A DNA stretch of 64,000 nt from a virus, in IMG/VR virus record IMGVR_UViG_3300010400_000001, positions 1 to 64,000 of that record; one strand, 5' to 3'. The position numbers and the translations under genes are program-made. Positions 2,622 to 59,717 of this stretch are shown piece after piece. The first letter of the stretch is position 1. Each line of letters starts with the position of its first letter. The notes under the pieces were generated by a model, which was given only the letters and a program-made list of their open reading frames with translations, ran no database searches and was not told the DNA's origin.

Positions 2622-2845
2622 TGGCTGACTTTTTCATTCGCAGGACTGGCGCCTGGTGCGTCTTCGAGCCGCTCACGGCGCGGGCCAAGGCTCGCGTGAG
2701 CTGGGGACGAATGCCGGTAGAACTCCGGAGCGGGGCCGCTGCGGATCAGATCGCGTGCCTCATCATCGACGGCTTCGATGTGCGAGGCGAAGGAACGTAT
2801 GCCGGCTACGGCGTCGAAGCGCCGCGCAAGGGGAAAGAAACATGA
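2618..2845 (+). CDS. hypothetical protein
   Basis: ATGA overlaps at both ends. Confidence 0.55.
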   Translation: MMADFFIRRTGAWCVFEPLTARAKARVSWGRMPVELRSGAAADQIACLIIDGFDVRGEGTYAGYGVEAPRKGKET

Positions 2846-4341
2846 CGACAGCAGCTAGAGCGCTAACAATCTCCCTCGAAGGACTCTCTGGGCGCGTGGT
2901 CGCCGTGGATGCTCGCGCGGAGCCTGGCTCCGGAGAGCTCCACATCAAGGGGCATCGCACGGAGGCGGCAGCGAGAGAAACCCGCGTTCGGGTGCTTTCT
3001 GCGCTCGTCCACTGTGGCGAACGCCTCGACGGATTCAACGTCACCGTGTCTCTCGGGCATGCCCCAATGTATGGCGGCGCGCCGTTCGACCTGGCCATCG
3101 CCGTGGCCGTGCTCGCGGCGCTCGGGCGCATCCAGGAAGCAGCGATTCAGGACACGGCGTTTTTGGGCGAGCTATCCCTGTCCGGTGACTTGAATCCGAT
3201 CCGAGGCGTGCTCCCGCTACTTCTTGCGACGAAGAGCGCGATGTTCGACACGGTCATCGTCCCTCTAGCAAACGAAGCGGAAGCCGCGATCGCCGATCGA
3301 CCGACGCTCGCTGCGCGTAACCTCGGCGAGGTCATCGAGCTTCTGAAGGACGCCAGGGAGCCCGGTAGCCCGATCCCGTATCGCGAGCCCGTTCCGGCGC
3401 TTCGCACCGATGCGGACATGAGCGACCTTCGAGGTAACCCGACTGCGCGCCGCGCTGTCGAGATCGCCGCTGCCGGCGGGCACAACATTCTGCTTCTCGG
3501 GCCGCCAGGCGCGGGCAAGACGCTCCTCGCTCGGCAGATCCCAGGGCTCCTTCCCGTGCTCACGAGAGGGGAGCTCTTAGAAGTAACCCAGATCCAAAGC
3601 GTGGCCGGTCTCATCGGCTCGAAGGGCTATGCCGACGTGCGCCCATTCCGAGCGCCGCACCATTCCGTAAGCGAAGCAGGCCTCCTTGGAGGGGGTACCG
3701 CAATGCGCGCGGGCGAAGTGAGCCTCGCGCACAACGGCGTGCTCTTTTTGGATGAGCTGCTCGAGTTTCAGGGTTCGACGCTCGAAAGCCTCGGTAACGT
3801 TCTCCGGCAGGGCGCCGTGACCACGTCGAGGTGCGGCGTCGAGGGCTTCCCTGCGCGGCCCCTTGTCGTTGCCTCCGCCTCGAGCTGCCCATGCGGCGCA
3901 TCGGGCACCGCGCGCCCGTGCAAGTGTTCGACAGCGGTCGTAGGGCGCCACCGAGCAAGACTTCGAGAGCTTCTTTCCATGTTCGATATCCGGGTCACGA
4001 TGCACAGCGTGAGCCCAGCCGAGCTCGTCTCGGATCCCACGGCGGAGACTTCGGACGTCGTGCGCGCCCGCGTGACTCGCGCGCGTGAGCTCCAGGCCGA
4101 GCGTGGTCGGGAGACAGGGCGCGGCTATCTGAACAAGCACGCTGCGCTGAAAGACCTCACGAGAAAGACCCTGTCGGACGCTGCTCGAGGCATCGTCGAA
4201 AAGCTCTTCGATGCGGGGCCCCCGTCTGACGTGACGGCGCTCCTTCGCGTCTCTCGGACGATTGCTGATCTCGACGGCAGTGAAGAGATCACGGCGCCCC
4301 ACATGGTGGAGGCGATTGATCTGCGCACCAGTTCACTTTGA
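2842..4341 (+). CDS. comM: ComM/YifB family Mg-chelatase-like AAA+ ATPase, partly degenerate
   Basis: Lon-like N-terminus (FDLAIAVA, GELSLSG), Walker A GPPGAGKT, FRAPHHS, GEVSLAHNGVLFLDE, CPCG..CKC, RTIADL. Confidence 0.9.
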   Translation: MTTAARALTISLEGLSGRVVAVDARAEPGSGELHIKGHRTEAAARETRVRVLSALVHCGERLDGFNVTVSLGHAPMYGGAPFDLAIAVAVLAALGRIQEAAIQDTAFLGELSLSGDLNPIRGVLPLLLATKSAMFDTVIVPLANEAEAAIADRPTLAARNLGEVIELLKDAREPGSPIPYREPVPALRTDADMSDLRGNPTARRAVEIAAAGGHNILLLGPPGAGKTLLARQIPGLLPVLTRGELLEVTQIQSVAGLIGSKGYADVRPFRAPHHSVSEAGLLGGGTAMRAGEVSLAHNGVLFLDELLEFQGSTLESLGNVLRQGAVTTSRCGVEGFPARPLVVASASSCPCGASGTARPCKCSTAVVGRHRARLRELLSMFDIRVTMHSVSPAELVSDPTAETSDVVRARVTRARELQAERGRETGRGYLNKHAALKDLTRKTLSDAARGIVEKLFDAGPPSDVTALLRVSRTIADLDGSEEITAPHMVEAIDLRTSSL

Positions 4342-4872: not shown

Positions 4873-5231
4873 CGATGGGGTATTCAGCAGAAAAGCTTGC
4901 AGAGATCCGGAAGGAGTTTCCGGACTTCACGGCAGGACCTCCTCCGGAGGAGCCCGTGCACGTGACGCTCACTCGGGTTCTCAAAACGATTCATCGAGAG
5001 GTGATTCTGAAGATGGCAACGGTCTCGGACGGCAACGTCGCCTGGGACGAGGTAGCGGACGAGTTCGTGATGGCCCTCGCCGGTCGCGTCGTCACCATCT
5101 CGGTGAGGGACTACGACCACCTCGTGACGGAGCTTCGGAACACGAAGAAGCTCCTTGCGGAAAGCTCGCGGCTCTGTGAGGAACTCTCGAGAGAGAGGGA
5201 CCTAACGCCTATCGGACCGCGGAGGCGCTGA
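4869..5231 (+). CDS. hypothetical protein
   Basis: AAGGAG upstream, ATGA overlap; C-terminal coiled coil. Confidence 0.6.
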   Translation: MTMGYSAEKLAEIRKEFPDFTAGPPPEEPVHVTLTRVLKTIHREVILKMATVSDGNVAWDEVADEFVMALAGRVVTISVRDYDHLVTELRNTKKLLAESSRLCEELSRERDLTPIGPRRR

Positions 5232-12858: not shown

Positions 12859-13097
12859 GTCGCCGGCCGTACGCGAAGATTCACGACCTCAAGCTCCTCG
12901 TCGACGCCGCGATGCAAGACGCGCTCATTACCGGCCACGAGATTTCCGTTCCAGTCGGCTTTCGCGCTGCTGCTACTCGTCTAGAAAAGCAGCGCCTCGT
13001 CGTGTGGACTAGTCTGCACACTGTCGCGCTCACTCGCCTCGGCAGGCAGCTCGTCGGCGTCCTTCTCGACGTACTTGCGGCTGTATCATTCAAGTGA
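12855..13097 (+). CDS. small winged-helix-like protein
   Basis: RLEKQRLV...VALTRLGR pattern; GTGA overlap. Confidence 0.5.
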   Translation: MSRRPYAKIHDLKLLVDAAMQDALITGHEISVPVGFRAAATRLEKQRLVVWTSLHTVALTRLGRQLVGVLLDVLAAVSFK

Positions 13098-13523
13098 CAT
13101 GAGATACTCTCGGAAGGTCGGATTCGCGATCGCGTGCACACCGAGCATGTCCCGACGCTTCGTACTGACCACTGCGTAGGTCACTCGCCCCGGCTGTCCT
13201 GTCAGAAAATGGAGAGCGAGCGCGGCGACGAAGCCTGAGCGATTTCGTCCCATGCGACAGGTGACGAGGACGCGCCTTCCGCGCGCCAGATCGCTCGCAA
13301 CGGCATCCGCAGCGACGAGAGCTGTTTCCATGTCCTCGCGCGACGGATTACCGACGTCATTGAACGGGAAGCGTCGTATGATGACGCCCGGGTAGCCCGA
13401 CGAGGGCGGCTGCACGTCGTCGGCGACGAACACGATGACGTCGAAGCCGAGCTCCTTGTAGTCCCCAGGCGGGGGAGCGGCACCGACCCAGAGCTTTTTC
13501 GCAACTCGGGTCGCGTCGAGCAC
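13086..13523 (-). CDS. dual-specificity (Cys-based) protein phosphatase
   Basis: LWVG, FPFND and the CX5R loop VLVTCRMGRNRS; GTG start at 13523. Confidence 0.85.
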   Translation of the reverse strand: MLDATRVAKKLWVGAAPPPGDYKELGFDVIVFVADDVQPPSSGYPGVIIRRFPFNDVGNPSREDMETALVAADAVASDLARGRRVLVTCRMGRNRSGFVAALALHFLTGQPGRVTYAVVSTKRRDMLGVHAIANPTFREYLMSLE

Positions 13524-13587
13524 GGTAGACCATCCTACCGAAAAGGCCGCTAGAAATCTATCGAGCGCGTGCTTATGGTAGCGTCTG

Positions 13588-16500
13588 ATGCTCGAGAACC
13601 GGCCAGAGCTCGCGCTCCTTCGAGCCAAGCGAACGCCGGAGGCCCTCGAGCGCTGGGTGAAGGCTTTCGCTGGGGGCGACAAGGACGTCGCACAGAGCTA
13701 CGCGATCATTGTCTCCCGTTTCACGGGACGGGACGAGGGTGGCTACGCCTCCTACATCGGCCGCTACTCGCCGAACACCAGGGCCGCGTACGCGTACGCG
13801 CTCACGGAGTTTTTCGAGTGGCTCGGCGCGAAGCACGGCCGCGTCATTCCGCCCCACGACGTGAGCCGGAAGGACGCCGAAGATTACGTCGAGTGGCTGG
13901 CGACGAAGCCTTTCTCGCTCGAGGCAGAAAAGCTCCGTGACGGAGATCAGCAGGAGCGCCTTGCGATCTACGAAGTCGTGAAGGAGCTTGGCTCCTCCGA
14001 TCTCACGAGCATCGCCGCGAAGCTTCCTCGGGCAGTCGTGAGCCGGCACAGCGCCGGCGGGGCGATCGACTTCGAGTGGCTTCACCGAGAGCTCGGGCTC
14101 ATGACTCTCCACGACCTTCTCGTGCGTTCGCCGACCATCGAAGAGCTTCGGAAGAGTAATCCGCTGATTGGGATCCATGTCTTCACCGTCGATCTCAACG
14201 GGCGACAGGTTCCGCTCGAGAGCGTGTTTTCGTATTCGACGCCGAAGCCCGTCGCCGTCTCGCGATCCACGATTGCGCTCCGCCTGACTGCGCTCTCCTC
14301 GTTCTGGAACGCGCTCTTGCGAACGGAAGGAAAGACTCTCGTCAAAGCCAACGTGTTCGAGGAAGTCCTCGAGCGCGTGTCGAGAGGCCTTTCGGCCGAC
14401 CGGCGAGCGGGAAGAACGCGGCGGCGCCGGCTCACGCCCGACATGGTCGACCGGCTCCTCCGCGCCGCCGAAGGGCCTTCGCTCGTAGAGAAGCGCGACG
14501 CAGCCCTGCTCTGGTTTTTGGTCCTCATGGGCGCCCGAGTGACCGAGACGATCCGCATCGTGAGGGACAAGCCCTCGACATCGGAGCTTCAGCGAACACC
14601 TGGGTGGTTCGACGGGAGAGCGCTCCCCCCTTCGGTCGAGCTCATCCGGAAGGGCGGCTTTCATCAGCGCTTGCCGTACCCGCCTTACGCCCTCCGAGCT
14701 CTACATGCCTTTCAGGCCGAGCTCGAAAAGCACGCGCCGCCCTTGGGCTCTCAATCCGATAATCCGAACGCCGCGCTCTACGTGCGTCCGGACTCGAGCG
14801 CGTGGCGCTACAAGCTCCTCGCAACGAAGCCCGATGCGCCGCTCTTTCCTCCAGTGAGCTTCTGGGGCCTGAACTCGCCGGGGAACTACCGCGAGCTCAG
14901 GCCGAACGGGCTCGACTACCGAAAGCCCATGAACCGATCGGCTGTGACCGCGATCCTCCGTCGCATCGCTGACAAGGCGGGGTTTTCGGACGAGGAGAAA
15001 CTGGCCGTGCACGGGCATGCCTTCCGCCACTTCGCGGCGACGGCGATGAGCCGGCAAGGAAAGCCCATCCGGGAGACGCAACAGATCCTCGGGCACGCGA
15101 GTATCGTGACGACCGAGACCTACGTCGAGGACATCACGAGCCCGGAGGCGCTCTCCGCTCAGAACGAGATCCTCGACTACATCGCCGGCGGCGAGCGCCC
15201 GCGCGGGGCGCCGGCTCCAGAGCCCCGTCGCCCCATTGTCGAAACCCACGGCATTGCCGTTCCGCCGACGGCTCCGGAGCCCGAGACTTCGGAAGTCGGC
15301 CTTCCCGCGGAAGCACCGAAAGTGAAGGCGCTGCCGGAGATCCAGAAGACTGCAAAGGGCCTCGTGGCGATCGCGCCGAAGGCCGTGCCTCCCGAGGTTC
15401 TCGAAGTCGAGCACGGGATCTCTTCTGGCTCGCCCTACTACGCGTACGAGGGGGCTGACCAACTCCACTTCACGATGGTCGAACCGCGGAGCGGCGCGAA
15501 GAGGGAGACGCTCTACACCAAAGGCTCAAAGGAGTACGTGCAGCGAGAGCCCTGGCTCCGCGAACATTACGACCCATGGCCCTTGAGCTACGGCATCGGA
15601 GAGAACAGCCTCCTTCCGTGGTTTGCTCGAGGGGCCGCCTCCTCGAGCGGCGAAGTCAAAGTCGAAGTCCGAACGAAGGACGGAAAGAAAGTCGTGACGG
15701 TGCCGCCGCTCCCCGTCTTCGCTGGCGAGCAGCTCTACTCGGAAGCGAAGGCGCCGACTCTCTGGAAGCGCGTTCTCGAGCTCCGGGAGAGATGGCTTCG
15801 GACGGCGCCGACGAAGGCGTTCGGACTCGACCGGTGGTGGGGCGCCTTTCAGGAGATCCAGCGAGGCCTCGCTCGCGGCACGGGCGGCGCCTTCCCCGTC
15901 GTTCCGTTCGATGCCCTCGGCACAGTCGGCACCAACATTCGAGCTCACGACGAAGAGTATCTCGCTGCGTGGCTCGAGAAAAACGCCGACAGGTACACGA
16001 CGACCGTTCGCGCCTTCGAAGGCATCGAGCGGCCGCGCGGGGGCTCGCTCACGGATGAGGAGTGGCTCTCGTTTCAAGAGAAGTTTGCCGCAGCAAGCCT
16101 CATCGGCGTGAGCCCCGCCGAGGAGCTTCCTGATTGGTTCATGCTCGATGATCCGGTGCGCGCCATTTACGACCACTCGAGCGAGGAATGGGAGTGGTTC
16201 GAAAAGTGGATCGGCGCCGTCACTGGGCAGCGCCTGACGCCGGCAAGAGACGCCGAGCGCGCGCGTGACGCTGCCTTCGCGTCCACGGCCATCGAGACTC
16301 GCATCGAAGAGGCGCGGGAGCTCCTCGCGGCCTACTTCGAAAGCGTCGAAGAGCTCAAGAACCAGCCGAAGGGCGAGGACGCCGACAGGGAGCGAGAAGT
16401 CATTCGGCTCCTTCGAGACAGACTCCTAGCGCTCGGCGTTCCAGATCCCGGGGCGACGAAGGGGCTCGCGCGAGACCTCAAGGCCCGCATCGAAGAGCTC

Positions 16501-17337
16501 ATCGCCCTCGGCTTTCCGTCCGCCGACGTCGAGCTCGTCGATCCGAACGTCCTCCGTAGCGCGCTCTTCGACAAGGACACGTTCCGAATCGACACGAGCA
16601 AAAAGACGATCTCGCACACGCCGGAATTCAGGAAAGACTTCGCCGAGCGCTACGACGGCCGGGACTCGGAATGCGTCGCCCGAAGAGCGGCGCGCGGCAT
16701 GTGGGAGCACGTGAAGCGCCACGGGATCCCGGTAAAGCGCGGCGCGGAGCGCTCTAGCGAGTACAGCCTCCTCTACTCCGTGATGCTCTCGTACCTTTCC
16801 TGGATCGTGCCGTGCCCCGAGGCCATCGAAGAGCGCATGGGCAAGGAGCGGAGCGCCCGGATGCGCTACCTCACGGGCTTTCGGCGGGCGAGCGCCCGAG
16901 TGCTCCGTACGGGCGACGTCGACGAGCCAGGGCTCCGCCGGATTGCCGTGGAGGAAGGGCTCGACGACGCCGGCGCCGGCGAAGTGCTCGAGGCGGCCCT
17001 CGTTCAGGACTCCATGCGGGCCGAGGTCGCGCTTCCGCCTCCGCCCGTCGCCGAGGCCATGGCCCGGTCCGCAATCGAGTCTGGGAACGTCCACGTGGCC
17101 GCTGTGCCCGCCATAGTCGTCACTCGAGGCAGACGGCGCACCGTGGAGGCGCCGCGGGCCCCCGTGACCTACTATTCGGTCGGGGGCGACGAGGAGACTG
17201 ACCTCACGCCGAACGCCCCGCCGCGGCGCTACCTGACGCCCAATGCCTTCGAGCACGGGCTCGGACGCATGGCACTGGCCGACCTCGCGATGCCCGGCGC
17301 GCTCCGGCTCATGGCCGCGATGACGAGGCCGTTCTAG
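13588..17337 (+). CDS. giant tyrosine recombinase with ~735-aa C-terminal extension
   Basis: SPNTRAAY..AL..F core-binding start, STIALRLTALSSFW, catalytic R317, RKGG, H477xxR480, LGH503, Y512. Confidence 0.9.
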   Translation: MLENRPELALLRAKRTPEALERWVKAFAGGDKDVAQSYAIIVSRFTGRDEGGYASYIGRYSPNTRAAYAYALTEFFEWLGAKHGRVIPPHDVSRKDAEDYVEWLATKPFSLEAEKLRDGDQQERLAIYEVVKELGSSDLTSIAAKLPRAVVSRHSAGGAIDFEWLHRELGLMTLHDLLVRSPTIEELRKSNPLIGIHVFTVDLNGRQVPLESVFSYSTPKPVAVSRSTIALRLTALSSFWNALLRTEGKTLVKANVFEEVLERVSRGLSADRRAGRTRRRRLTPDMVDRLLRAAEGPSLVEKRDAALLWFLVLMGARVTETIRIVRDKPSTSELQRTPGWFDGRALPPSVELIRKGGFHQRLPYPPYALRALHAFQAELEKHAPPLGSQSDNPNAALYVRPDSSAWRYKLLATKPDAPLFPPVSFWGLNSPGNYRELRPNGLDYRKPMNRSAVTAILRRIADKAGFSDEEKLAVHGHAFRHFAATAMSRQGKPIRETQQILGHASIVTTETYVEDITSPEALSAQNEILDYIAGGERPRGAPAPEPRRPIVETHGIAVPPTAPEPETSEVGLPAEAPKVKALPEIQKTAKGLVAIAPKAVPPEVLEVEHGISSGSPYYAYEGADQLHFTMVEPRSGAKRETLYTKGSKEYVQREPWLREHYDPWPLSYGIGENSLLPWFARGAASSSGEVKVEVRTKDGKKVVTVPPLPVFAGEQLYSEAKAPTLWKRVLELRERWLRTAPTKAFGLDRWWGAFQEIQRGLARGTGGAFPVVPFDALGTVGTNIRAHDEEYLAAWLEKNADRYTTTVRAFEGIERPRGGSLTDEEWLSFQEKFAAASLIGVSPAEELPDWFMLDDPVRAIYDHSSEEWEWFEKWIGAVTGQRLTPARDAERARDAAFASTAIETRIEEARELLAAYFESVEELKNQPKGEDADREREVIRLLRDRLLALGVPDPGATKGLARDLKARIEELIALGFPSADVELVDPNVLRSALFDKDTFRIDTSKKTISHTPEFRKDFAERYDGRDSECVARRAARGMWEHVKRHGIPVKRGAERSSEYSLLYSVMLSYLSWIVPCPEAIEERMGKERSARMRYLTGFRRASARVLRTGDVDEPGLRRIAVEEGLDDAGAGEVLEAALVQDSMRAEVALPPPPVAEAMARSAIESGNVHVAAVPAIVVTRGRRRTVEAPRAPVTYYSVGGDEETDLTPNAPPRRYLTPNAFEHGLGRMALADLAMPGALRLMAAMTRPF

Positions 17338-17804
17338 TAGTTTTTCAGAACAGTGAACTGCGACGCGAGATCTTCGCAGTACATCCCGTTCGAGAGACAG
17401 AGCAGGAAGACGTCACCGCTACCCGGCGTCGCCTCGAGCGGAGTCCGTCGATAGACCGAGATGACGGTGCCGGCGAATTCGCGTGACGTGCCGCCCGCGA
17501 CGTCGCCTTGCACGGGGCCATTTGGATCGACCCGAACGACGAATGCTCCAGAAAACCGGTTTACGCTGTCCGCGTCCGCATCCTCGATGACGTCGAGATT
17601 GAGGTCGGCCACACTGATCGCGACGACGTCCTGTATGAGGTCGTTCTGCCAGAGGACCGTACGCGTCTCTTCCGGCGCTTCAGTCGACTCCTCACCGATG
17701 ATGTTGCCGAAGAGCGGGCCCTGGGGCTGGAGACTCGGCTGGAGCGTCGCCGACAGAGATGTCGCCTGGATCCGCGCAGCAACCACTTTCAGAACGTCCG
17801 GCAT
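17334..17804 (-). CDS. hypothetical protein, paralog of 17809..18279
   Basis: Shares LQPQ.P..G, S.E..G.V and LSNGMY.E motifs with its neighbour. Confidence 0.75.
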   Translation of the reverse strand: MPDVLKVVAARIQATSLSATLQPSLQPQGPLFGNIIGEESTEAPEETRTVLWQNDLIQDVVAISVADLNLDVIEDADADSVNRFSGAFVVRVDPNGPVQGDVAGGTSREFAGTVISVYRRTPLEATPGSGDVFLLCLSNGMYCEDLASQFTVLKNY

Positions 17805-17808
17805 GGTT

Positions 17809-18279
17809 TCACCGATTGGTCAGCAGTCGAACACGAACGATCGGAAGCTCGTAGTACATGCCGTTCGACAGTGACTTTATGAGCACCGTCGCAACGCCGT
17901 TCACATTGAAGACGTCGACGACTCGACCGATGTACTCCTGGCTGTACACGTTGAGATCCGGAACCGGAAGCGGCGGCGCCGGGTCGACCGCGCGGAGCCC
18001 GACGACGACCTTGTTCATGTAGGTCGTGCGAATGAGATCTGACGGGGCCTCGATGAGGTCGAGGGCGTCGTCCCTGCACCCGGTCGGCACGAGCGCGCTC
18101 GCGTTGTTCGAGAACGTGATGCCCGTCTCGGCAAACGTCGCCAAGATCACGTCCGGATCGCCGTCCGTGACTTGCGTCACGACCCCGAGCGTCGGGGGCT
18201 GTGGCTGAAGCCTGGAAACCGCGCCAAGTGTCGAGCTCGTGAGCCTGGGCCGAACCCGATTGCCGACGACTAGCGCCAT
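17809..18279 (-). CDS. hypothetical protein, paralog of 17334..17804
   Basis: Same shared motifs; both genes encode 156 aa. Confidence 0.75.
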   Translation of the reverse strand: MALVVGNRVRPRLTSSTLGAVSRLQPQPPTLGVVTQVTDGDPDVILATFAETGITFSNNASALVPTGCRDDALDLIEAPSDLIRTTYMNKVVVGLRAVDPAPPLPVPDLNVYSQEYIGRVVDVFNVNGVATVLIKSLSNGMYYELPIVRVRLLTNR

Positions 18280-18321: not shown

Positions 18322-18963
18322 TCAAGAAGGCACTAAATATCGGCTTTCGTCGTCGTACATCATCGACGTTTCGACGAAGCGGATCTGCCGGTGCTGCCCA
18401 GCCAAAACCTCCAGCACGAGCGCGCGGACGACATTCATGGGGATCGTGCCCTGAGCGACCGCCCGGCGCGTCAGCGCGCGCTTTGCTCCGTGAGGGATCG
18501 TCGAACGCTCATAGTGCTTGTGCCGCTCTGGTCCTCCGGACGGATGGCGAACGCCCTGATAGTACCAAGCAGCGAGCGGCGTCGGCTCCCTTGTGCCGAG
18601 AAGGTACGAATGGATCAAGCTCCGAAGGAGCACCGGCCCCGTCACCTGCCGAAACTCGCACTCCACCGTCCAGGCCTTGCGCACGACCTCGGCCATCGGC
18701 AGGTGATACTGGTAGAGCCGCCGGTGCGCTTCGCCGGCGGCGGGCTTGGTATGCCGGAGATGAGGACTAGGAAACCCGCGCTCGTGCCGTTCGATGCGCG
18801 CCTGTGCGCGCACTTCGAGGAGGAGCTCCGGATCGACTCCAATCTTCTTTGCGACGCGATCGATCTCCGAGTCCGCGATGGCGCACTTGGCGTACCAGGT
18901 GCCGAGAAGCTTTTCGAAGAGCCACTCGCGAAAGGACTCGGCCCGCGGCGCCTTCTTCTTCAT
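18322..18963 (-). CDS. putative DNA-binding protein with tandem RHH-like segments
   Basis: Two beta-helix-helix-like repeats ending LLRSLIHSYL and VVRALVLEVL. Confidence 0.5.
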   Translation of the reverse strand: MKKKAPRAESFREWLFEKLLGTWYAKCAIADSEIDRVAKKIGVDPELLLEVRAQARIERHERGFPSPHLRHTKPAAGEAHRRLYQYHLPMAEVVRKAWTVECEFRQVTGPVLLRSLIHSYLLGTREPTPLAAWYYQGVRHPSGGPERHKHYERSTIPHGAKRALTRRAVAQGTIPMNVVRALVLEVLAGQHRQIRFVETSMMYDDESRYLVPS

Positions 18964-29014: not shown

Positions 29015-29328
29015 CGCGGGTGCGTTCGCTAGCTGAATGGCGACGCGACCTGCCGAATCCGCGCAGGCCCTCTGCCGCAACGGCGCGAGAGCCGTTCTAC
29101 GTCGCGCTTGGCGAGATAGTGAGGGAGATGCGTGCGCGACTCGGAAAAAGCCAAGCCGCCCTTGCTGCCGAGATCGGCGTGGGAACGACGGTGCTCTGTC
29201 GCATCGAGCAGGGAAGCGTTCGCTTTCCGGTGCACCTATTCCCGAACCTAGCGAAAGCGTTGCGGCTCGAGGTGAGAGACCTCTTTCCGCCCGGTTTTCT
29301 CGACGACCCGAAGAGCAAACGGAGGTAG
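29011..29328 (+). CDS. XRE-family HTH regulator
   Basis: LGEIVREMR...GKSQAALAAEIGV....LCRIEQG...LAKAL. Confidence 0.85.
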   Translation: MTRVRSLAEWRRDLPNPRRPSAATAREPFYVALGEIVREMRARLGKSQAALAAEIGVGTTVLCRIEQGSVRFPVHLFPNLAKALRLEVRDLFPPGFLDDPKSKRR

Positions 29329-58336: not shown

Positions 58337-58386
58337 TCTTCAACCCCGGAGGCTACCTCCTCCGCAAACCGAAAGAGCGACCATGA
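58333..58386 (+). CDS. 17-aa mini-ORF coupling the two GT2 genes
   Basis: MIFNPGGYLLRKPKERP with ATGA overlaps at both ends. Confidence 0.4.
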   Translation: MIFNPGGYLLRKPKERP

Positions 58387-59717
58387 AGCTAGGGATCCCG
58401 ACTCTCAATAACTACGCCGGCGTCAACGCACTCATCGCCTCTGCAGAGGCAGGCTCCGTGAGCCCCGAAAGCTACATCATCATCGACAACGGAGGGAGCT
58501 TTCCTCAGCAGTCGGAGTTCGGGACCAGGTGCAAGATCATCCGCAACGGGCGTAACCTCGGCGTCGCCGCGGCGTGGAACGAGCTCTTGAGAGGCTCGCC
58601 AGACGAGCCCGTTGTCATTTCGAATGACGACATCATCTTTGGCAAAGACACCTTTCGGATGCTACGGGACGCAGCCCTCGAGCACCCATTCGTCGGCGCC
58701 GCCGGCGGCTGGGCTCTCTTTGCGCAGAGCCCCGAGTGCACGAAGGCAGTCGGCTTCTACGACGAGAGGTTCTACCCGGCGTACTACGAGGATTGTGACT
58801 ACCTCCTTCGCATGAGGCGCGCGGGCGTTCCTATTTTCGATCTCGGATGGGCGGGAGCGACGCACCTCGGAGAAATCACGACCAAGACTGCGAGCGAGAG
58901 TGACCGCTCGCTGATTGCAGACGGGCGCGCAAGAAACTACTCGTACTTCGTCACCAAGTGGGGGTCGGATAGCCCGCGGTGGGGCGATCCTCACGTGTCG
59001 AACTTTCCCGAACCGTTCAATGGCCGGTTCCAAGGCCACTTCCCGAACGAAGCCGGAGACCCTCGACTCGAGCGCACGCACCTCTCTCCGATGCGCTACG
59101 ACGTCCTGAACTTCATCGCCGAGCTCACGGGCGCTACGCGCTACCTCGAGATCGGAGTCAGCGACGGGGACAACATGCGGCGCGTGAACATCGCAGAGAA
59201 GTGGGGCGTCGATCCGGTCCCGCAACCGAGCGGAGTTGCGGCCTGCTCGGTGTTCGTGCCGCGGACGAGCGACTTTTTCTTCCAGACCATGTCGGTCCGA
59301 GCCGGCAAGTTCGATCTAGTCTTCATCGACGGGGACCACCGAGCCGAGCAGGTCTACCGGGAAGTGCACTACGCTCTCCCGCTTCTATCTCCCCGCGGCG
59401 TCATCTGCCTTCACGACTGCAGCCCTCACACCGAAGCGATGCAGGAAGTTCCGCACCGGACGGGCTGGCAGTGGACCGGCGACGTGTGGAAGGCCGTGGC
59501 GCGCCTCCGATCCGAGGGACTCGACCTCCGAGTCATCCCATCGGACTTCGGGATCGGCTTTCTGGTCCCAACCGAGGAGCAAACGCCGCGGGTGACTCTA
59601 CCCGCCGAATGGGACCGGCTTCTCTGGCGCGATCTTGTCGCCGATCGAGAGAACCTCCTCGGCCTTCTCAGGCCCGGCGAGTGGCAGAGCGCGCTCCGGA
59701 CTTTGCTCGGCGCTTAG
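58383..59717 (+). CDS. GT2 glycosyltransferase fused to a class I SAM methyltransferase
   Basis: IIDNG, N.GVAAAWN, SNDD, GFYDERFYPAYYEDCD; YLEIGV, GVDP, FDLVFIDGDH, LHD. Confidence 0.9.
   Translation: MKLGIPTLNNYAGVNALIASAEAGSVSPESYIIIDNGGSFPQQSEFGTRCKIIRNGRNLGVAAAWNELLRGSPDEPVVISNDDIIFGKDTFRMLRDAALEHPFVGAAGGWALFAQSPECTKAVGFYDERFYPAYYEDCDYLLRMRRAGVPIFDLGWAGATHLGEITTKTASESDRSLIADGRARNYSYFVTKWGSDSPRWGDPHVSNFPEPFNGRFQGHFPNEAGDPRLERTHLSPMRYDVLNFIAELTGATRYLEIGVSDGDNMRRVNIAEKWGVDPVPQPSGVAACSVFVPRTSDFFFQTMSVRAGKFDLVFIDGDHRAEQVYREVHYALPLLSPRGVICLHDCSPHTEAMQEVPHRTGWQWTGDVWKAVARLRSEGLDLRVIPSDFGIGFLVPTEEQTPRVTLPAEWDRLLWRDLVADRENLLGLLRPGEWQSALRTLLGA

Follow-up and report, generated by a model that had tools for sequence, protein, structure and literature searches.

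What is a phage tyrosine recombinase of 1249 residues for, and on which DNA does it act? Few DNA enzymes are understood as well as the tyrosine recombinases, which have found wide use as tools, and nearly all of those studied measure 300-450 residues. The virus record IMGVR_UViG_3300010400_000001, one contig of 136,226 bp, carries the gene for a giant protein of this kind at 13588-17337 on the + strand, within the first 64 kb of the record (64,000 nucleotides), which we call the window. We find that residues 1-535 of the protein are a recombinase of the Xer/Cre type and that the gene goes together with short, dif-like DNA arms, one directly before its start codon and three in a distal cluster. 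New here are this link of arm and site to the gene, the wide count of loci that have it, the co-variation of the arms from phage to phage, the architecture of tandem sites and the conservation of the cluster in an independent sample.

Architecture and relatives of the giant recombinase

The open reading frame (ORF) is one intact gene with an ATG start, 1249 codons, a stop and zero internal stops. Its GC content at third codon positions (GC3) is 0.81 across the ORF and matches that of real genes in this 63% GC genome. It is the sole PF00589 match in the genome, where searches with family profiles found no serine recombinase. Pfam places Phage_integrase (PF00589) on residues 445-514 with E 6.8e-17 and 62.2 bits, against a cut-off of 27.1, and a SAM-like N-terminal domain on residues 59-107 (PF13495, E 4.3e-6; PF02899, E 1.7e-4 on 59-108), while the PHROG integrase phrog_1 spans residues 224-541. 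Conservation was read from three alignments, one of 52 family sequences, one of 24 sequences for an insert in the core-binding domain (A5) and one of 20 sequences covering the C-terminus only. The first-pass annotation of this DNA had claimed a complete catalytic set, and the family bears this out: R317, K355, H477, R480, H503 and Y512 are invariant in all 52 sequences. In the N-terminal extension N4, L8, R12 and K14 are nearly invariant in the same alignment, and the catalytic domain holds a family-specific insertion at residues ~381-449.

The predicted structure agrees with this assignment. For the AlphaFold model of residues 1-560 (pLDDT 86.3) the VIA-align matches include an archaeal Xer protein (4a8e, Z 16.6, 262 residues aligned), the Brujita integrase (Z 16.5, 270 aligned), XerA (5hxy, Z 16.4, 260 aligned), Cre (1kbu, Z 15.1, 283 aligned), XerH (5jjv, Z 14.0, 294 aligned) and IntI4 (Z 13.5, 276 aligned). 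Foldseek returned 34 matches for the N-terminal half at E <= 0.001, among them XerA with E 3.2e-5. The isolated integrase N-terminal domains 3nrw, 2kd1 and 3lys align over model residues 8-262, 31-272 and 38-271, respectively. Protelomerases are absent among the structure matches listed for this half, which does not exclude them. Pfam lists neither a telomere-resolvase family nor an arm-binding family at E <= 1; three helices make up the N-terminal 58 residues.

The core-binding domain is interrupted by an insert that separates, in the AlphaFold model, the core-binding helices 62-106 from 226-278 and is conserved in the 24-sequence alignment. Model residues 121-219 align with winged-helix proteins at Z 7.2-8.2 and an rmsd of 1.6-3.4 over 58-68 residues (VIA-align), with matches to Zur, ArsR/AntR, MarR, MecI and Z-alpha domains. 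More than 20 of the 50 matches listed are winged-helix proteins, and values of Z under 8 are modest. A profile of the insert run against the Protein Data Bank (PDB) gave as its one match a designed repeat protein (E 2.4e-5), regulators staying at E > 1. Thus the earlier suggestion of a winged-helix-like insert splitting the core-binding domain is upheld by the fold, without a sequence-level match to a natural protein.

Past the recombinase half the chain runs, as the same annotation had described, over a Pro-rich linker into a Trp-rich C-terminus that resists assignment. Five Trp (W678, W750, W795, W850 and W874) are invariant in the 52 sequences, as are the polar residues Q715, H787, N799, D855, R887 and H1010. 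The 20-sequence alignment adds E867, N987, D1002, D1026, R1032, R1033 and R1036 as invariant, and P1236 and A1244 in the C-terminal tail are nearly so. AlphaFold models residues 600-1249 with pLDDT 82.8 and pTM 0.84, as a module of ~550-650 aa in which a beta-rich domain (~626-705) is followed by helical domains, a long helical hairpin (~885-948) and a conserved sub-domain (~990-1100). An exhaustive phmmer search over 1.84 billion representatives gave only 70 proteins at E <= 0.001, 46 of them at <= 1e-30. The strong matches are mostly 1100-1600 aa long, and the match begins near residue 600-900.

None of the comparisons tied the C-terminal module to a known family. Foldseek gave a best E of 0.25 against the PDB and 0.12 against BFVD, and VIA-align against 48,161 chains gave only generic coiled-coil rows on the long helical hairpin (Z <= 6.9). 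The 20-sequence profile reached a best E of 0.38 against PDB sequences, and Pfam over the 20 C-terminal members reached no E below 0.02, with no family matched by more than two of them. PADLOC gave no match. In the ESM Atlas residues 600-1249 had no usable match, and residues 960-1160 scored 0.76-0.77, below chance level. The structure searches were run on the two protein halves, not on single domains, and the fold of the module may already be known. A two-copy complex prediction for residues 609-1108 scored 0.00, which is evidence neither way on self-association.

A word-seeded search over 5.8 billion proteins found 59 relatives with E <= 0.001. The majority are full-length proteins (1130-1534 aa) with 34-70% identity, and many of the 59 come from contigs of 100-140 kb. 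The whole architecture is common to 52 aligned relatives of 1130-1534 aa. Full-length relatives sit on IMG/VR contigs of 138, 140 and 130 kb; a fourth, on 112 kb, is matched over its N-terminal half at the identity threshold used, and further relatives occur on 44 metagenome loci. Scanning one genome per species across 185,579 species yielded three full-length relatives, all on contigs of metagenome-assembled genomes (MAGs; 2.8, 48 and 122.7 kb), and none in an isolate chromosome. The 2.8-kb contig is a 99% identical fragment (L081), and the 122.7-kb contig resembles a whole phage genome and also carries the site cluster described below. A tblastn search of the INPHARED phages gave zero matches. 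The giant recombinase is a core gene in a group of 110-140-kb soil phages.

That the long ORF is an artefact, two genes joined by a sequencing or assembly error, has next to no probability. The first-pass annotation had named such a fusion as the outcome that would overturn its reading, and the idea fails because the 59 relatives, most of them full length at 34-70% identity, come from independent samples and keep an identical domain order. The 99% identical sequence on a second contig and the GC3 over the ORF argue in the same direction. So do ten distant C-terminal matches that were tested with Pfam: in five, Phage_integrase lies upstream of the match, and the other five hold no Pfam family. 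The literature searched, which did not extend to the supplements of papers, contains no description of the family; 'large tyrosine recombinase' denotes SE/Tn554-type elements in the one passage of print in which it was met. The proposal of a new multidomain class is supported, given a family that is conserved, absent from that literature and furnished with a C-terminal module so far without relatives, family or fold match.

Arms before the gene and dif-like sites in a distal cluster

The arm is 11-13 bp long, of the type TTATGGTAACG, or TTATGGTAACG(TC) when extended. One copy lies at 13573-13585 (- strand; + strand reading TTATGGTAGCGTC) and ends 2 nt before the recombinase ATG, being identical at 12 of 13 positions to the arms in the distal dif-like sites. 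When one mismatch is allowed, the 13-mer is found at only four places in 136,226 bp, namely here and three times at 135034-135107. The genome palindrome scan shows the palindrome 135076-135107 as GACGTTACCATAA-CGTCAC-TTATGGTAACGAC, i.e. 13-bp arms around a 6-bp centre, with 44% GC compared to 63% for the genome. The third arm copy is situated 42 bp upstream of this palindrome, beside a degenerate partner. The first-pass annotation had proposed a search for att, dif-like or palindromic target sites. The dif sites of E. coli, B. subtilis and archaeal XerA have an 11+6+11 geometry, as stated in PMC5357621.

The first 123 bases of the record are repeated exactly at its end, so that the assembly is circular (136,103 bp), and on this map the cluster lies 14.6 kb upstream of the recombinase gene, between two divergent genes. 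Neither of them belongs to a recognisable family; the left one keeps its place at the cluster in the related genomes G001-G003. The genome has no long palindrome of the tel kind, the largest being the 13-6-13 one with its non-palindromic centre. The four sequencing runs were all examined as Logan contigs, in which neither rare junctions nor physical ends would be visible; in the likely source run and in one independent run, contigs cross the palindrome with no joint and no loose end. In an independent landfill-metagenome relative, one contig over the cluster has the three arms and the centre unchanged.

In related phages the arms were sought with the pattern TTAKNNWAACG, the reversed pattern serving as control (0-1 match per genome). 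G002 and G004 each have three matches, consisting of an inverted pair with a 6-bp spacer and one arm directly upstream of the recombinase start, and G003 has two, one upstream of the gene and one distal. The upstream arm matches a distal arm at 11 of 11 positions in G002 (TTATCGTAACG), G003 (TTATGTTAACG) and G004 (TTATGGAAACG), each genome having its own variant, with CGT, GTT or GGA replacing GGT. Over a wider set of loci with 35-70% protein identity, the motif occurs no more than 65 nt before the start in 24 of the 31 that include upstream sequence, compared with three matches in the other ~415 kb. L129 (41% identity) has its own 11-6-11 site 8.9 kb upstream, which has an 8-mer in common with the arm before its own ATG; apart from it, the other 11-6-11 palindromes in the relatives' loci are rich in GC and show no relation to the upstream regions.

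In G000, G004 and G005 a pair of tandem sites, 41-43 bp from each other, lies between divergent genes, and the 6-bp centres differ between the tandem sites within one genome. The centres observed, CGTCAC, CTGTGC, TTGAGG, TGACGA and GCTTCA, are none of them palindromic. All five genomes that are complete or nearly so (G000-G004) have the site in their interior. The left flanking gene is undetectable beside the cluster in G004, G005 and L129, where the pairing of site and recombinase gene persists.

A promoter-like layout of the form CTAGGAA/CTGGAAA - 17 bp - TATNNT, read in this genome upstream of the gene, recurs in L001, L002, L003 and many further loci and ends 6-8 nt before the ATG. This suggests a promoter for a leaderless or nearly leaderless mRNA, overlapped by the arm. 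At the distal cluster, a promoter scanner placed two promoter-like sites over arms where 0.1 would be expected.

Several observations concern the surroundings of these sites. A 27-nt inverted repeat (93% complementary) brackets both dif-like sites at genome 134980-135006 / 135138-135164 (L105 4980-5006 / 5138-5164), and both divergent transcripts would therefore begin with the same leader. Its equivalents measure 19 nt in G004 and 17 nt in G005, and the sequence differs between phages; the repeat may serve as an accessory site or as an RNA leader, or may have arisen by concerted evolution. Directly to the right of the palindrome stands a GC-rich hairpin, GCCGCCGGCGG-G-CCTCCGGCGGC, at genome 135111-135133 (L105 5111-5133). 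In the 95-99% identical landfill relative the hairpin beside the arms carries ~10 substitutions and one inserted base. Between the distal cluster and the recombinase gene lies the gene for a ComM/Mg-chelatase-type AAA+ protein (window 2656-4341, +; Pfam Mg_chelatase E 7e-64, ChlI, Mg_chelatase_C).

Iteron-like AACCGTT/AACGGTT heptamers with ~12 bp spacing, including a 13-5-13 palindrome, occupy genome 75490-75555, with two chance-like matches of the recombinase-arm pattern among them; the heptamers may be an origin or the site of another regulator. The MAG G005, which also holds a relative of this phage, contains a candidate chromosomal dif, AGTTGACATAA-TATACA-TTATGCGAAGT, in an intergenic position (L164 1501-1528, contig C111). 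It has the same inner CATAA/TTATG ends as the phage sites.

A possible genome resolvase and the alternatives

We see about an even chance that the protein is a self-repressing phage genome resolvase that acts on the dif-like sites. The recombinase is taken as the binder of the arms because the geometry is that of dif, because its fold relatives are Xer proteins and because a lone arm suits the binding of one protomer per arm. The two facing arms at 135076-135107 and the degenerate neighbour 42 bp away would then be core sites within a symmetric control region. Protomers would bind the arms, bring two copies of a site, on sister genomes or concatenated ones, into synapsis and exchange strands over the 6-bp centre, which would resolve or circularise replicating phage DNA in the way of Cre/loxP of P1 and Xer/dif of chromosomes. 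Since their centres differ, the tandem sites could not recombine together, and the only partner of each would be its own copy on a sister genome. For the same reason, and because no integrated copy was found, we favour resolution or circularisation over integration.

The lone arm overlaps the promoter-like -10 element and the start, and the protein bound there would repress its own synthesis, for which IntS (PMC2951348) and TnpI/IRS (PMC2847244) are precedents. Binding at the distal sites, over promoter-like hexamers, probably damps both divergent transcription units, as at Tn3 res and the Tn4430 IRS. The winged-helix insert most likely adds DNA contacts, and we propose that these account for the long 13-bp arm. 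As to the C-terminal module, our guess is that it is a new compact multi-domain unit which, on its flexible Pro-rich linker, controls synapsis or couples recombination to another phage process; the guess derives from the tethering by this linker and the strict association with a recombinase, and from nothing else. In short, we infer that the protein binds the predicted sites, that it resolves rather than integrates and that it autoregulates, and any role of the C-terminal module is equally conjectural.

A number of findings weigh against this reading. By analogy the protein would work like an Xer/Cre enzyme, yet it falls outside the Xer equivalogs: the NCBIfam Xer models are its best matches but lie far under their cut-offs (XerA NF040815, 72.2 against 220 bits; XerD TIGR02225, 69.8 against 329.6; XerC TIGR02224, 62.1 against 335; XerS NF003462, 26.3 against 267). 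A consensus promoter scanner called no promoter upstream of the gene, where the layout fits 8 of 12 positions, and for that reason a promoter there stays putative. Under the pattern used, seven of the 31 loci have no motif before the start; L129 counts among these seven because its inverted arm variant falls outside the pattern. The single match in G001 lies upstream of the gene; this genome's distal arms are variants that the pattern does not cover. A plasmid prophage like P1, the setting in which phage resolvases are best known, is unsupported, as profile searches of the genome found neither a CbiA-type ParA nor ParB_N. Contig-only runs cannot reveal rare junctions, and the present findings do not explain what a resolvase would need 650 additional residues for.

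Tandem palindromes between divergent promoters also form a classic repressor-operator layout, and one of the flanking genes, which belong to no family, could encode a separate regulator. Such a protein could bind the arms, the link between recombinase and site being drawn from sequence. The motif would then be the operator of an unrecognised phage regulator that governs the divergent early genes and the recombinase gene, and the recombinase would have its target elsewhere or in the host. The bracketing inverted repeat adds to the resemblance to a genetic switch, the distal arms overlap promoter-like hexamers, and a DNA-binding role is conceivable for the flanking genes, of which the left one is conserved in G001-G003. 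We nevertheless consider this rather unlikely. A lone half-site suits the monomer-per-arm binding of tyrosine recombinases and would be unusual for a dimeric repressor, and the 11+6+11 geometry with its CATAA/TTATG inner ends is that of dif, the substrate of the closest fold relatives. Moreover, the pairing is kept in G004, G005 and L129, where the left gene is undetectable beside the cluster, and the arm stands beside the recombinase gene in 24 of 31 loci at 35-70% identity.

The two functions may also be joined in one protein. It is possible, though unlikely, that the recombinase is both genome resolvase and master early regulator, acting on the two dif-like sites and its own promoter, with the C-terminal module as a sensor or architectural unit that decides between repression, synapsis and release of transcription. 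If so, this would be a new design, with a catalytically active recombinase in the place that a classical repressor would hold in a large phage. MrpR of SPbeta (PDB 8a0a) and SroF of phi3T (PDB 9rd5) have the tyrosine-recombinase fold (Z 10.0 and 11.3, respectively); 9rd5 is a structure in complex with DNA and the title of 8a0a calls it a prophage master regulator, a precedent for the regulatory use of this fold in phages. Unlike them, the giant family keeps all catalytic residues, and their matches are weaker than those of true Xer proteins and Cre.

The first-pass annotation had offered resolvase, integrase and telomere processing as roles. Resolvase fits best, given the dif-like 11-6-11 sites, the Xer-like fold and the lack of an integrated copy. 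For its further idea that the protein is packaged in the virion, the analysis gave evidence in neither direction. An integrase for lysogeny would use the distal cluster as attP and a host attB with the same 6-bp centre, and the arm at the promoter would serve negative autoregulation. The protein is of integrase type by Pfam and PHROG, the Brujita integrase (Z 16.5) is among the best fold matches listed, one HTH_3 protein, the single one in the genome, is encoded at 29119-29280, and the uncultured soil hosts are possibly poorly sampled in public genomes. Integrase autoregulation through att sites overlapping the promoter is documented for IntS (PMC2951348). We hold this role to be unlikely all the same, since no integrated copy was met: the three full-length matches among 185,579 species are on short or phage-sized MAG contigs, and the viral and metagenome relatives sit on phage contigs. 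Lambda-type arm sites or an arm-binding domain were not seen, only core-type arms, and no S24 repressor was found in the genome. Near-perfect palindromes in two tandem copies with differing centres fit recombination of each site with itself better than recombination with a conserved attB. No contig shows a junction at the site, contigs being weak evidence here.

Telomere processing is the part of that proposal that has no support. A protelomerase-like resolvase would cut the palindrome and seal hairpin ends, giving a linear plasmid prophage or a linear replicative form. The near-perfect palindrome inside a larger symmetric region recalls such targets, and the protelomerases TelN, TelK, TelA and ResT are enlarged members of the superfamily that have extra domains and act on palindromes. 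This is very improbable here, however, as the largest palindrome is 13-6-13, the centres are not palindromic and there are two tandem sites, not one. The assembly is circular with a 123-bp overlap and, by a long-repeat search of the 136-kb genome, has no terminal inverted repeat; the site is internal in G000-G004, and contigs of two runs read through it without a strand-switch joint. Pfam gives an Xer-type SAM-like domain and no match to a telomere-resolvase family.

Among known systems, Xer (XerA-dif, XerH-difH, XerS-difSL and XerC/D; PDB 4a8e, 5hxy, 5jjv and 1a0p) provides the best fold and sequence matches for residues 1-535 and shares the two-domain layout, the catalytic residues and, as predicted here, a site in which two 11-bp arms flank a 6-bp centre. 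The genetic link between a single recombinase and its own site recalls xerS/difSL. Unlike the compact Xer proteins of ~300-360 aa, the giant recombinase is four times larger, with its winged-helix insert, catalytic insertion and ~650-aa C-terminal module; it is phage-borne, its sites are near-perfect tandem palindromes and one arm lies at its own promoter. Cre of P1 is likewise a phage-encoded simple tyrosine recombinase (fold Z 15.1), which acts on two 13-bp inverted arms around an asymmetric spacer and circularises and resolves the phage genome. In contrast to Cre/loxP, the spacer here is 6 bp rather than 8, no partition genes were found, and Cre is without insert or C-terminal module. Cre and Flp need nothing else, and Int and XerCD need separate accessory proteins.

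Double use of a site is known from the serine resolvase of Tn3, which both resolves and represses at res. For TnpI of Tn4430, PMC2847244 describes an IRS core site plus accessory copies of the same motif; the inverted core pair with nearby motif copies in a promoter region and a recombinase that resolves and represses resemble the present arrangement. The differences are that this is a 136-kb phage and not a transposon, that 14.6 kb separate the cluster from the gene, which has only one arm beside it, and that the accessory arrangement is a second palindromic site, not direct repeats. The predicted 28-32-bp site of each phage, the co-varying arm variants and the predicted autoregulatory arm make the function testable. 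If the prediction is true, these phages hold a set of naturally orthogonal recombinase/site pairs and offer a route to the role of the 650-residue appendage, be it synapsis control, directionality or coupling to gene regulation.

Coordinates, gene neighbourhood and further observations

Table 1. Positions in the window of the recombinase gene, its domains and its neighbours, with the basis of each assignment.
Feature	Position	Strand	Basis and remarks
Giant tyrosine recombinase gene	13588-17337	+	ORF, Pfam, PHROG, relatives
N-terminal three-helix extension, residues 1-58	13588-13761	+	AlphaFold helices 6-12, 17-28, 32-46
Core-binding (SAM-like) domain, first half, residues 59-107	13762-13908	+	Pfam; model helices 62-83, 94-106
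Winged-helix insert within core-binding domain, residues ~108-225	13909-14262	+	Fold match, conservation
Core-binding domain, second half, residues 226-280	14263-14427	+	Model helices 226-244, 258-278
Catalytic domain, residues ~281-535	14428-15192	+	Pfam, PHROG, invariant columns, fold matches
Catalytic codons	R317 14536-14538, K355 14650-14652, H477 15016-15018, R480 15025-15027, H503 15094-15096, Y512 15121-15123	+	
Pro-rich, poorly conserved linker, residues ~536-615	15193-15432	+	Translation; low pLDDT at 536-547; mostly variable consensus with many P
C-terminal module, residues ~616-1150	15433-17037	+	AlphaFold; alignment
Disordered variable segment, residues ~1151-1193	17038-17166	+	pLDDT 30-45 at model residues 552-593
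Conserved C-terminal tail (strand and two helices), residues ~1194-1249	17167-17334	+	pLDDT 87-91
Promoter-like layout TAGAAA - 17 bp - TATGGT	13551-13579	+	Read from sequence; ends 8 nt before ATG
Divergent upstream neighbour, weakly dual-specificity-phosphatase-like	13086-13523	-	Pfam Tc-R-P, DSPc, Y_phosphatase3, E 1.4e-3 to 8e-3, all below cut-offs
Three convergent small genes	17334-17804, 17809-18279, 18322-18963	-	No Pfam match; order conserved in L001-L003

The neighbourhood of the gene is conserved, with the phosphatase-like gene divergent upstream, the three small genes convergent downstream and glycosyltransferases following them; the phosphatase-like neighbour is kept directly upstream of the recombinase in L001-L004. 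A 35-bp direct repeat (34 of 35 positions identical), present at window 13360-13394 and genome 124869-124903, ties the phosphatase-like gene to a repeat-rich region at 124.6-125.2 kb.

Four tandem paralogous genes for collagen-like tail fibres at 49369-54858 (-), with PHROG tail-fibre matches down to E 1e-42, identify the virus as a tailed phage. A related copy, inverted, is present at genome ~114.2-115.2 kb. The long repeats of the genome consist only of these collagen-like tail-fibre repeats, the 123-bp assembly overlap and a few short pairs. The protein encoded at window 58383-59717 (+) is an unusual fusion, glycosyltransferase-like in its N-terminal half (phrog_29879, E 6e-23) and DNA-methyltransferase-like in a C-terminal stretch (phrog_27561, E 1e-15). 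Finally, ARAGORN reports two odd tRNAs at window 41323-41552 (+), a 'tRNA-Pyl' with anticodon CTA (89 nt) and a tRNA-Ile with anticodon AAT.

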